A DNA stretch of 37,596 nt from the NCBI GenBank assembly GCA_003552365.1, contig PUKR01000172.1, positions 1 to 37,596 of the forward strand, in the 5' to 3' direction. Under the pieces are notes generated by a model. That model saw only the letters and a list, made by a program, of their open reading frames with translations. It ran no database searches and had not been told where the DNA came from. Positions 4,906-10,453 of this stretch are shown in pieces. A program made the position numbers and the translations under genes. Within the stretch, counting starts at the first letter, position 1, and each line of letters starts with the position of its first letter. Origin of the DNA: Syntrophomonadaceae bacterium. GTDB taxonomy: Bacteria; Bacillota; Dethiobacteria; DTU022.

Positions 4906-5212
4906 AAAATAAAAATCCGCCCCCTTTATGTTAAGGGACGGAGCATACCCGCGGTACCACCCTTATTGGTAATCATCTGGTGGAGCTGGCGGGAGTCGAA
5001 CCCGCGACCTCTTCCATGCCAAGGAAGCGCGCTCCCACTGCGCCACAGCCCCTCGTTGTGTTACCCTCTTGCATGCCGTTATCGCCGGCTTACGGCAGCA
5101 ATTACTTCTTCTTTCACCGCTGCTTCTCCGGGACGAGTTCAGCATTGATGCCTGCCGGTTTTCAGCTACCCCGGCTCTCTTTTTAGGCTTTCATGCTTAC
5201 TGCTTCCCTTCA
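4906..5212 (-). promoter_or_regulatory. T-box riboswitch leader (Leu, specifier CUC) controlling leuS; it contains an embedded tRNA gene
   Basis: All readings are on the minus strand. Stem I is GGGA-agc-AGUA-a-GCAU-gaaa-GCCU-aaaa-AGAGAG-CCGG-gguagcugaaaa-CCGG-c-AGGC-auca-AUGC-u-GAA-CUC-g-UCCC. It shows the AGUA/GAA S-turn, the AGAGAG distal bulge, and the specifier CUC at 5137-5135 followed by a purine. A Stem II hairpin GCAGC...GCUGC lies at 5123-5095. The T-box motif AAGGGUGGUACCGCG is at 4964-4950. The terminator UCCGUCCCUU-aacau-AAAGGGGGCGGA plus a U run is at 4942-4906. Confidence 0.85.
4978..5052 (-). tRNA. tRNA-Ala (anticodon GGC), 75 nt, CCA encoded
   Basis: The minus strand reads GGGGCUG-UG-GCGC-AGUGGGA-GCGC-G-CUUCC-UUGGCAU-GGAAG-AGGUC-GCGGG-UUCGACU-CCCGC-CAGCUCC-A-CCA. 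This folds as a full cloverleaf with U8, A14, G18G19, U33, the T-loop UUCGA, the G3:U70 Ala identity pair and discriminator A73. Confidence 0.93.
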
Positions 5213-5248
5213 TTGAGTTAACATTCTGGTACCCCGAGTACATTTTAC

Positions 5249-5277
5249 ATTATATGCACGCGCGTAAGCCTTGTCAA
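5249..5277 (-). promoter_or_regulatory. sigma-A type promoter of the leuS T-box leader (TTGACA, 17 nt spacer, TATAAT)
   Basis: The minus strand reads TTGACA(5277-5272) aggcttacgcgcgtgca TATAAT(5254-5249). Both hexamers match consensus exactly. Confidence 0.65.
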
Positions 5278-10354: not shown

Positions 10355-10447
10355 AAACAAACCCCCTGTAAAGGACTCGCCGAATATGGTAGCCCGACAA
10401 GAACTTTGTGAGGCTTTTAAAACCATCTTCGTGCGGTTGTCAGTCTA
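10355..10447 (-). promoter_or_regulatory. structured 5' UTR of rplU, possibly an L21-leader-type element
   Basis: About 90 nt separate the predicted promoter from rplU, with GACAA...UUGUC pairing potential. Firmicutes are known to carry an L21 leader here, but I cannot verify the fold by eye. Confidence 0.3.
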
Positions 10448-10453
10448 TTGCTG

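Follow-up and report, generated by a model that had tools for sequence, protein, structure and literature searches.

In a 37,596-nucleotide (nt) stretch of DNA from a Syntrophomonadaceae bacterium (contig PUKR01000172.1; this whole stretch is called the window below), the leader of leuS, the gene for leucyl-tRNA synthetase (LeuRS), is a T-box riboswitch that holds a complete transfer RNA (tRNA) gene, tRNA-Ala(GGC), in the loop of its Stem III. Riboswitches of the T-box class are the classic example of an RNA that reads a tRNA. The nested architecture itself is near certain. As its most satisfying explanation we propose, and consider likely, that the leader is a functional Leu(CUC) T-box attenuator of leuS, and that a genuine tRNA-Ala(GGC) gene in the apical loop of Stem III is driven by the leader promoter and later excised from the transcript. 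Co-transcription, excision, a regulatory decision that comes before cleavage and the use of the tRNA in translation are steps that we infer from comparative sequence analysis. The composite leader and the regulated gene consist of the following parts, in the order of transcription:

5277-5249, minus strand: leader promoter of the sigma-70 type, with the -35 element TTGACA at 5277-5272, a 17-nt spacer and the -10 element TATAAT at 5254-5249 (12/12 matches to the consensus).
5222-4931, minus strand: T-box leader (Rfam RF00230), with model positions 1-219 all matched (111.0 bits, gathering score 93, E = 6.7e-24).
5216-5124, minus strand: Stem I with the AGUA/GAA S-turn, the AGAGAG bulge and the distal loop, from the Rfam alignment and the sequence.
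5137-5135, minus strand: specifier codon CUC (Leu) in the context GAA-CUC-G (5140-5134), from the Rfam alignment and the sequence.
5122-5071, minus strand: Stem II (5122-5096) and the Stem IIA/B region (5095-5071), from the Rfam alignment and the sequence.
5070-5061, minus strand: purine string AAGAG (5070-5066) and Stem III 5' strand GGUAA (5065-5061), which fit the discriminator motif and are supported by family-wide covariation.
5060-5053 and 4977-4973, minus strand: spacers on the 5' side (8 nt) and the 3' side (5 nt) of the tRNA.
5052-4978, minus strand: tRNA-Ala(GGC) gene of 75 nt with encoded CCA, from ARAGORN, the Rfam tRNA model and covariation among homologues.
4972-4966, minus strand: Stem III 3' strand UUACC (4972-4968), which pairs with 5065-5061 and covaries in related loci, then the conserved AA (4967-4966).
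4967-4934, minus strand: T-box sequence AAUAAGGGUGGUACCGCG (4967-4950) with the UGGU bulge (4959-4956), and antiterminator (4963-4934), from the Rfam alignment and the sequence.
4942-4906, minus strand: intrinsic terminator, a 10-bp hairpin (4942-4916) followed by the run UUUUUAUUUU (4915-4906), from a terminator scan and the sequence.
4895-2409, minus strand: leuS, encoding leucyl-tRNA synthetase (828 aa), the regulated gene, an open reading frame whose LeuS homologues downstream of composite leaders are 44-80% identical.

The sole large departure of the window T-box from its consensus lies in the Stem III loop, where the Rfam alignment needs an 88-nt insertion instead of the normal ~9 nt. 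It is inside this insertion that the Rfam tRNA model RF00005 finds its match (68.9 bits, gathering score 29, E = 3.6e-13), and ARAGORN calls one tRNA in the whole 37.6-kb window, a tRNA-Ala(GGC) at exactly 5052-4978, with G3:U70, A73, an encoded CCA and the anticodon at 5020-5018. The E-values of the T-box and tRNA matches exclude chance. The T-box itself has an S-turn, a specifier codon followed by a purine, and a codon that fits the downstream leuS. The T-box discriminator has been described as the motif 5'-RRRxG-Stem III-AA-3' (PMC7583486), and because the purine string, the two Stem III strands and the AA stand at the edges of the insertion, its flanks reproduce this motif (AAGAG-GGUAA...UUACC-AA) together with the UGGU bulge. 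Between the CCA of the tRNA and AAGGGUGGUACCGCG there are exactly 13 nt (4977-4965). The antiterminator and the terminator are mutually exclusive, since positions 4942-4934 are common to both.

Much of this layout had been proposed in an earlier note made from the letters of the window alone, and the analysis bears it out. The promoter (TTGACA, 17 nt, TATAAT), Stem I with its S-turn, AGAGAG bulge and CUC specifier, Stem II with a IIA/B-like region, and the 75-nt tRNA-Ala with G3:U70, A73, GGC and CCA were all found where it had placed them, the ARAGORN call having the same ends; so were the 13 nt that separate the tRNA from the T-box sequence, and the terminator/antiterminator and leuS beyond. 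Its central claim, that the tRNA takes the Stem III position of a leuS T-box, agrees with the covariance models, which did not reject the T-box call, and with an identical layout in 105 loci. The note had treated the nesting as a single case, but related leuS leaders from at least 105 species of several phyla carry it.

To delimit this family we scanned one genome per GTDB species with a generic pattern, in which the T-arm GGTTCRANTCC is followed after 17-47 nt by the T-box sequence GGTGGNACCRCG. The scan yielded at least 120 species-representative loci, and all family counts derived from it are lower bounds. ARAGORN called the tRNA as Ala(GGC) in 105 of these matches; the remainder comprised one tRNA-Thr, one tRNA-Phe, one tRNA-Leu(CAG) and 12 matches without a tRNA call, several of which are clipped by the end of the locus. 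Other guests were considered as well (tRNA-Thr, tRNA-Phe, tRNA-Leu(CAG), transfer-messenger RNA and the matches without tRNA), and those tested with Rfam were without a T-box spanning the tRNA. With the exception of L037 (Oribacterium), which is an ordinary T-box without a tRNA, the tested non-Ala and tRNA-less matches lack a T-box and are therefore regarded as chance matches. As the tested non-Ala candidates fail, each genuine tRNA-in-T-box in the sample is a tRNA-Ala(GGC).

A full-length T-box match spans the tRNA in all 7 of the Bacillota-type loci tested with Rfam (108-133 bits). For Chloroflexota, Armatimonadota, Coprothermobacterota and other non-Bacillota, where a permissive threshold was used, the T-box spans the tRNA in 11 of 12 loci (60-91 bits, E = 1e-10 to 1e-18), the twelfth being truncated. 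All eleven (L001, L006, L008, L012, L039, L054, L059, L063, L073, L085 and L098) lie below the gathering score of 93; the tRNA insertion costs score, so that these non-Bacillota leaders would be missed by routine annotation. According to the submitters' labels the 105 loci belong to Chloroflexota (55), Bacillota (32), Armatimonadota (2), Ca. Fervidifonticultor (2) and Coprothermobacterota (1), while 7 are unclassified and 6 are metagenome-assembled genomes labelled otherwise. The Chloroflexota carriers include Limnocylindria, Thermomicrobiales/Sphaerobacter, Ktedonobacteria, Anaerolineae, Caldilineae and Thermoflexales, and those in Bacillota include Syntrophomonadaceae, Peptococcaceae, Desulfotomaculum-type genera, Thermoanaerobacteraceae, Thermacetogeniaceae and Gelria. 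Among the named carriers are Desulfitispora alkaliphila DSM 22410, Desulfofundulus thermosubterraneus DSM 16057, Desulfotruncus alcoholivorax DSM 16058, Thermosyntropha lipolytica DSM 11003, Tengunoibacter tsumagoiensis Uno3, Ktedonobacter racemifer, Sphaerobacter and Syntrophomonas. On this distribution the nesting is an ancient and widespread architecture, and not a one-off.

Is the guest a working tRNA gene? The nested tRNAs amount to 63 distinct sequences, and that of the window recurs unchanged in loci of three other species. G3:U70 and A73 are present in 103/103 loci, and the anticodon GGC is invariant across the nested tRNAs; that it does not vary in at least 105 species lends indirect support to a mature product that serves in translation. 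When the 63 distinct homologues are aligned to the cloverleaf, 99.8% of the cells are paired and 15 of the 21 stem pairs have changes on both sides; this level of pairing and covariation was reached by 0 of 500 shuffles, and no slid register came close. Conservation of this kind shows that purifying selection acts on the decoding and identity elements of the nested tRNA. The base preceding G1 (position -1) is U in 79/105 nested tRNAs, and bacterial RNase P prefers U at this site; together with the canonical acceptor stems, this gives indirect support to cleavage at the tRNA 5' end. After A73, 84/103 loci encode CCA and the other 19 do not; the latter are mostly of the Anaerolineae type, where the adjacent free-standing tRNA-Ala(CGC) is often CCA-less too. 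By every sequence criterion, the guest RNA is a bona fide tRNA-Ala.

The host is conserved as well. All 102 leaders that are long enough for the specifier to be read have CUC, and never a codon for Ala: GAACUCR is located 69-196 nt upstream of the tRNA in 99 of them, and the other three also have CUC. A stricter structural search for the specifier again gave CUC in nearly all leaders that yielded a candidate. Downstream on the same strand, leuS is found in 98/105 loci, the other 7 ending less than 1.7 kb past the T-box. It follows the composite leader directly in 61 loci, and elsewhere one or two genes lie between. In Limnocylindria-type loci (L013, L050 and others) these are a GNAT acetyltransferase and a methyltransferase, in Armatimonadota-type loci (L022, L054, L083, L090) a class IV (ilvE-like) aminotransferase, and in Desulfotomaculum-type genera (L016, L045, L102) an AMP-binding (acyl-CoA-synthetase-like) enzyme. 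No reason for Leu T-box control of an AMP-binding enzyme or a GNAT is evident from the loci.

The sequences that flank the tRNA pair with each other as Stem III. Cognate flanks form duplexes of -12.5 kcal/mol on average, compared to -8.6 kcal/mol for non-cognate ones, and the cognate duplex is the better one in 85/103 loci (Wilcoxon p = 1.6e-13). A further comparison placed both strands from sequence anchors only, with RRRNG for the 5' strand and, for the 3' strand, an AA that precedes GGTGG by 4-5 nt. Here 86.5% of the Stem III cells are paired, as against 63.7 +/- 1.4% with shuffled partners (maximum 67.9% in 1000 shuffles), and positions 2-5 feature several Watson-Crick pair types. The strict motif of RRRNG, five pairs and AA is present in 70/103 loci with 29 distinct 5-bp stems. 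Between Stem III and the tRNA, the 5' spacer measures 2-20 nt and the 3' spacer 1-24 nt, depending on the locus. Further downstream, 63/104 loci have a T-run hairpin after the antiterminator, and in high-GC clades a GC-rich hairpin with a T-rich tail stands there. A translational (sequestrator) mode was considered for these clades and set aside because the hairpins bear T-rich tails, and transcriptional attenuation is therefore kept as the default. By its whole-model covariance match, specifier, discriminator and mutually exclusive hairpins, the host is a genuine T-box. At its variable base, the bulge has U in nearly all loci (UGGU, which matches a discriminator A73), C in L063 and L118, and A in L099.

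With the ACCA end of the nested tRNA-Ala just 18 nt upstream of the UGGU bulge, the two could in principle pair in cis and thereby modulate or replace the sensing of tRNA-Leu. The discriminator base of tRNA-Leu is likewise A73, so the bulge could pair with either tRNA. Such mimicry would, however, expect an encoded CCA, which the 19 loci mentioned above do not have; it would also need the intervening nucleotides, which are committed to the Stem III 3' strand and covary with the 5' strand, and the specifier is always Leu and never Ala. We consider this idea extremely improbable, and pairing of the nested CCA with the bulge is ruled out by the CCA-less loci together with the occupation of the intervening bases by Stem III.

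The promoters point to one transcription unit. Of 91 loci, 41 have a TTGACA-16/18-TATAAT match of at least 10/12 shortly before Stem I; 13 of these matches are perfect and 19 reach 11/12. Near-consensus promoters of this strength are more typical of stable-RNA genes than of genes for aminoacyl-tRNA synthetases. A separate promoter of the tRNA, inside the leader, was sought and rejected: a scan of the minus strand of the window gave no promoter-like site before the tRNA other than the 12/12 one, and of 91 related loci a single one scores 10/12 or more in the segment from specifier to tRNA. In 14 Chloroflexota loci (L006, L025, L038, L039, L042, L059, L062, L063, L071, L075, L084, L086, L093 and L105) the nested tRNA is preceded on the same strand, at a distance of 183-317 nt, by a tRNA-Ala(CGC) gene. 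In one of them, L039 (5288-5666, minus strand), the T-box match begins 18 nt past tRNA-Ala(CGC), so that the 5' half of the T-box is placed between two tRNA genes; as 18 nt leave no room for a separate promoter, this T-box probably has none of its own. The simplest reading would be a single unit of a strong promoter, an optional tRNA-Ala(CGC), Stem I/II, tRNA-Ala(GGC), the discriminator/terminator and leuS.

A second collection of loci was fetched by protein, with the LeuS of the window as query against metagenomes. It comprised 80 loci, among them L121, which is the window's own contig (Ga0207421_10000240). Composite T-boxes were found in L124, L125, L128 and the incomplete locus L126, and L180 has a leuS T-box without a tRNA (189 nt, 91.6 bits). 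Most of the distant LeuS homologues have neither a tRNA nor a T-box. In two loci, L169 and L183 (positions 1300-1500 in each), a promoter, tRNA-Ala(GGC) and a GC hairpin with a T-run are followed within ~20-30 nt by leuS, and neither Stem I nor a T-box sequence was found in them. The motif CUCGYCC in their hairpins resembles the conserved 3' strand of the T-box antiterminator, for which reason these hairpins look like remnants; the two loci look like decayed T-boxes that have retained the tRNA and the terminator, with leuS presumably expressed by read-through from the tRNA promoter. L122 (1075-1500), from the same metagenome as the window, has a tRNA-Ala(GGC) identical to that of the window, a LeuS with 67% identity and a hairpin before leuS. 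A perfect TTGACA-17-TATAAT promoter is followed there by a 230-nt leader with an F-box-like CCGTTA, in which Rfam found no T-box and no UGGN bulge was seen; this leader may be a diverged or degenerate regulator. To judge by these three loci, the linkage of tRNA-Ala(GGC) and leuS outlives the riboswitch.

The reduced loci L169 and L183, where the promoter stands directly before the tRNA and a T-run hairpin and leuS come after it, are what would be expected if the composite leader were two independent units, that is, a tRNA with a promoter of its own and a T-box 3' half acting as a mere terminator, with Stem I/II as a relic. A related possibility is a recent insertion associated with a mobile element. 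We regard both as very improbable. In the window and in 104 other loci, Stem I has been kept along with the CUC specifier, purine string, UGGN bulge and alternative hairpins. A promoter-like site between specifier and tRNA is confined to the one locus noted above. Moreover, at least four phyla share the nesting in housekeeping contexts, which argues against a recent insertion.

The reduced loci bear in the opposite way on a third possibility, in which the tRNA fold is mainly a structural or functional module of the riboswitch that stays in the leader, where it might extend Stem III, contact tRNA-Leu or RNA polymerase, or lengthen the time available for ligand capture. In its favor, the site of the tRNA is constant, at the Stem III tip of the discriminator domain, and the partner is always the same tRNA species. 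An insertion of 88 nt should also delay synthesis of the discriminator relative to Stem I, and lineage-specific insertions in Stem III/helix A2, as yet unexplained, may add contacts in other T-boxes (PMC7583486). A scaffold, on the other hand, needs no invariant GGC anticodon, G3:U70 or A73, nor U at -1 or an encoded CCA. Spacers that vary so much in length on both sides of the tRNA speak against a contact of fixed geometry, and a purely structural role does not readily account for a tRNA that stays beside leuS where Stem I and the T-box sequence are missing. We therefore hold a mainly structural function to be unlikely. The earlier note had offered an expression vehicle for tRNA-Ala and a structural spacer as two options. 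The first is favored by the comparative evidence (the invariant anticodon, G3:U70 and A73, the 15/21 compensatory pairs, U at -1, the placement of the promoter and the linkage in the absence of a T-box); the second does not stand as an alternative, because a tRNA at the tip of a covarying Stem III with intact base and purine string is compatible with the vehicle.

Under the favored explanation, a T-box attenuator with an excisable tRNA gene, transcription would start at the very strong promoter upstream of Stem I; in some Chloroflexota the transcript would instead come from the upstream tRNA-Ala(CGC) gene. Stem I and Stem II would be made first and capture tRNA-Leu(GAG), after which the Stem III 5' strand, the whole tRNA-Ala, the Stem III 3' strand and the T-box discriminator would emerge in that order. 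The base of Stem III and the purine string could then re-form around the folded tRNA at the tip and join up with helices A1/A2 and the tRNA-Leu(GAG) 3' end. The discriminator would still read the tRNA-Leu 3' end, and the choice between antiterminator and terminator would fall within ~60 nt of the emergence of the tRNA. Because the tRNA lies upstream of the terminator, every transcript, whether terminated or read through, would carry one tRNA-Ala. Cleavage by RNase P at G1 and processing of the 3' side would finally free the tRNA-Ala and split the Stem I/II sensor from the expression platform and the leuS messenger RNA (mRNA).

Several points weigh against this explanation. In many loci Stem III consists of the paired 5' leader and 3' trailer of the tRNA. 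Pairing of this kind can retard both RNase P and the maturation of the 3' end, so that excision may not be efficient. Minimum free energy folding of the full 317-nt leader did not recover the cloverleaf (z = -1.66), a result that is uninformative rather than contrary. Finally, if the tRNA were a pure passenger, its exclusive pairing with a Leu(CUC)/leuS T-box would be left unexplained. Why are only tRNA-Ala(GGC) and only the Leu(CUC)/leuS T-box combined in this way? The economical answer is a single ancient event that was locked by the essentiality of both genes.

Excision might itself be a regulatory step, which releases tRNA-Leu, triggers decay of the leader or sets a protected 5' end that stabilizes the read-through leuS mRNA, or couples LeuRS to a growth-rate-controlled tRNA promoter. 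The near-perfect consensus promoters across phyla, the position of leuS as the tail of a tRNA-Ala(CGC)/tRNA-Ala(GGC) unit in some Chloroflexota and the order of promoter, tRNA, terminator and leuS retained in the loci without a T-box are consistent with such a role, and leader cleavage affects mRNA stability in other T-box systems. No sequence feature, however, separates regulatory excision from a simple passenger, and we assign the idea a low probability as a distinct explanation; it is an extension of the favored one and does not contradict it. Its furthest form would be a self-punctuating riboswitch, whose regulatory cycle could not do without RNase P and 3' processing: they would cut off the sensor after each co-transcriptional decision, release tRNA-Leu, set the 5' end and stability of the leuS mRNA and yield one tRNA-Ala(GGC) each time that transcription starts. 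In such a scheme LeuRS would form the gated tail of a growth-rate-coupled stable-RNA unit, and the pairing would reflect functional coupling and not a frozen accident. We put this forward tentatively, as a conceivable but rather doubtful proposal.

The window neighborhood is a housekeeping region, which comprises the L21 leader, obg, a nadD-like gene, an HD/yqeK-like gene, rsfS and a ThiF-family gene, then the composite leader and leuS, followed by Asp23 and a comEA-like gene. The ribosomal protein L21 leader (RF00559) is located at 10366-10448 on the minus strand (38.1 bits, gathering score 36), with an open reading frame of 127 aa at 10426-10043 downstream. The obg, nadD-like, HD/yqeK-like, rsfS and ThiF-family genes fill the stretch from this leader to that of leuS.

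In comparison to canonical leuS T-boxes (RF00230, Bacillus-type), the composite leader has the same CUC/Leu Stem I, Stem II and IIA/B, RRRxG-Stem III-AA motif, UGGN bulge, alternative hairpins and leuS. The Stem III loop, however, is a few nt long in the canonical form, whereas here 88 nt encode a complete tRNA of another amino-acid specificity. Insertions in T-boxes are known: staphylococcal glyS T-boxes have a lineage-specific insertion, stem Sa (PMC9177973), and translational T-boxes have unexplained insertions in Stem III/helix A2 (PMC7583486). Like these, the nested tRNA is an extra element of the discriminator domain that is conserved within lineages and tolerated by the core mechanism. 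Those insertions, on the other hand, are plain hairpins without an independent identity, while the element described here is a gene for another RNA, is a predicted RNase P substrate and crosses phyla instead of being restricted to one genus.

The nearest conceptual precedent that we found is the GOLLD RNA, which has embedded tRNA genes, for example a tRNA-Phe in J13/15 of Mycolicibacterium GOLLD (PMC12990946). In both cases a complete tRNA is nested in a large structured non-coding RNA, as shown here by a T-box model that spans the tRNA and by flanking Stem III strands that covary, and the same question of excision arises. GOLLD differs in having no known function and in not being a cis-regulatory switch; here the host is a well-understood tRNA-binding riboswitch, and cutting would sever the sensor from the platform. 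An Rfam search of the window gave no GOLLD match.

Transfer RNAs also occur as co-transcripts or punctuation, as in the E. coli thrU-tyrU-glyT-thrT-tufB operon, the spacer tRNAs between 16S and 23S ribosomal RNA, mitochondrial polycistrons and MALAT1/mascRNA. There, too, a tRNA or tRNA-like fold is co-transcribed, is freed by RNase P and a 3' endonuclease and defines the ends of its neighbors. In those systems the tRNA stands between functional units, whereas in the composite leader it lies inside one, within a helix of the regulatory domain that folds around it. Cleavage of a T-box leader is not without parallel either. The B. subtilis thrS leader is cleaved, with an effect on mRNA stability. 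The S. aureus met T-box leader is reported to be cleaved by RNase III, which affects mRNA stability (PMC7913692). The likeness is that the leader is cut after or alongside the decision and that stability of the downstream mRNA is affected; the difference is that the predicted cleavage signal is here a tRNA seen by the maturation machinery, and that one of the products would be a functional tRNA. In the full-text literature covered, including TBDB, Wels 2008 and the 2020 T-box review, no tRNA gene inside a T-box was found described, and as older comparative surveys lie outside this coverage, a prior mention is possible. Within these bounds, a T-box whose discriminator domain carries a conserved and apparently functional tRNA gene appears to be previously undescribed.

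For T-box biology, the composite leader means that an L-shaped guest of 75 nt can be accommodated at the Stem III tip. It also means that in many Chloroflexota, Clostridia-type Bacillota, Armatimonadota and Coprothermobacterota a synthetase gene is expressed from what appears to be a tRNA promoter or operon. T-box regulation of leuS is probably under-called outside Bacillota, and overlapping "T-box" and "tRNA" annotations elsewhere should not be dismissed as errors. The arrangement would set up a natural race between the decision of a riboswitch and cleavage by RNase P, which could be measured in vitro. Because cultured carriers exist, these leaders, which should surprise specialists of T-boxes and of RNase P alike, offer a system to study how a co-transcriptional riboswitch coexists with RNA processing.

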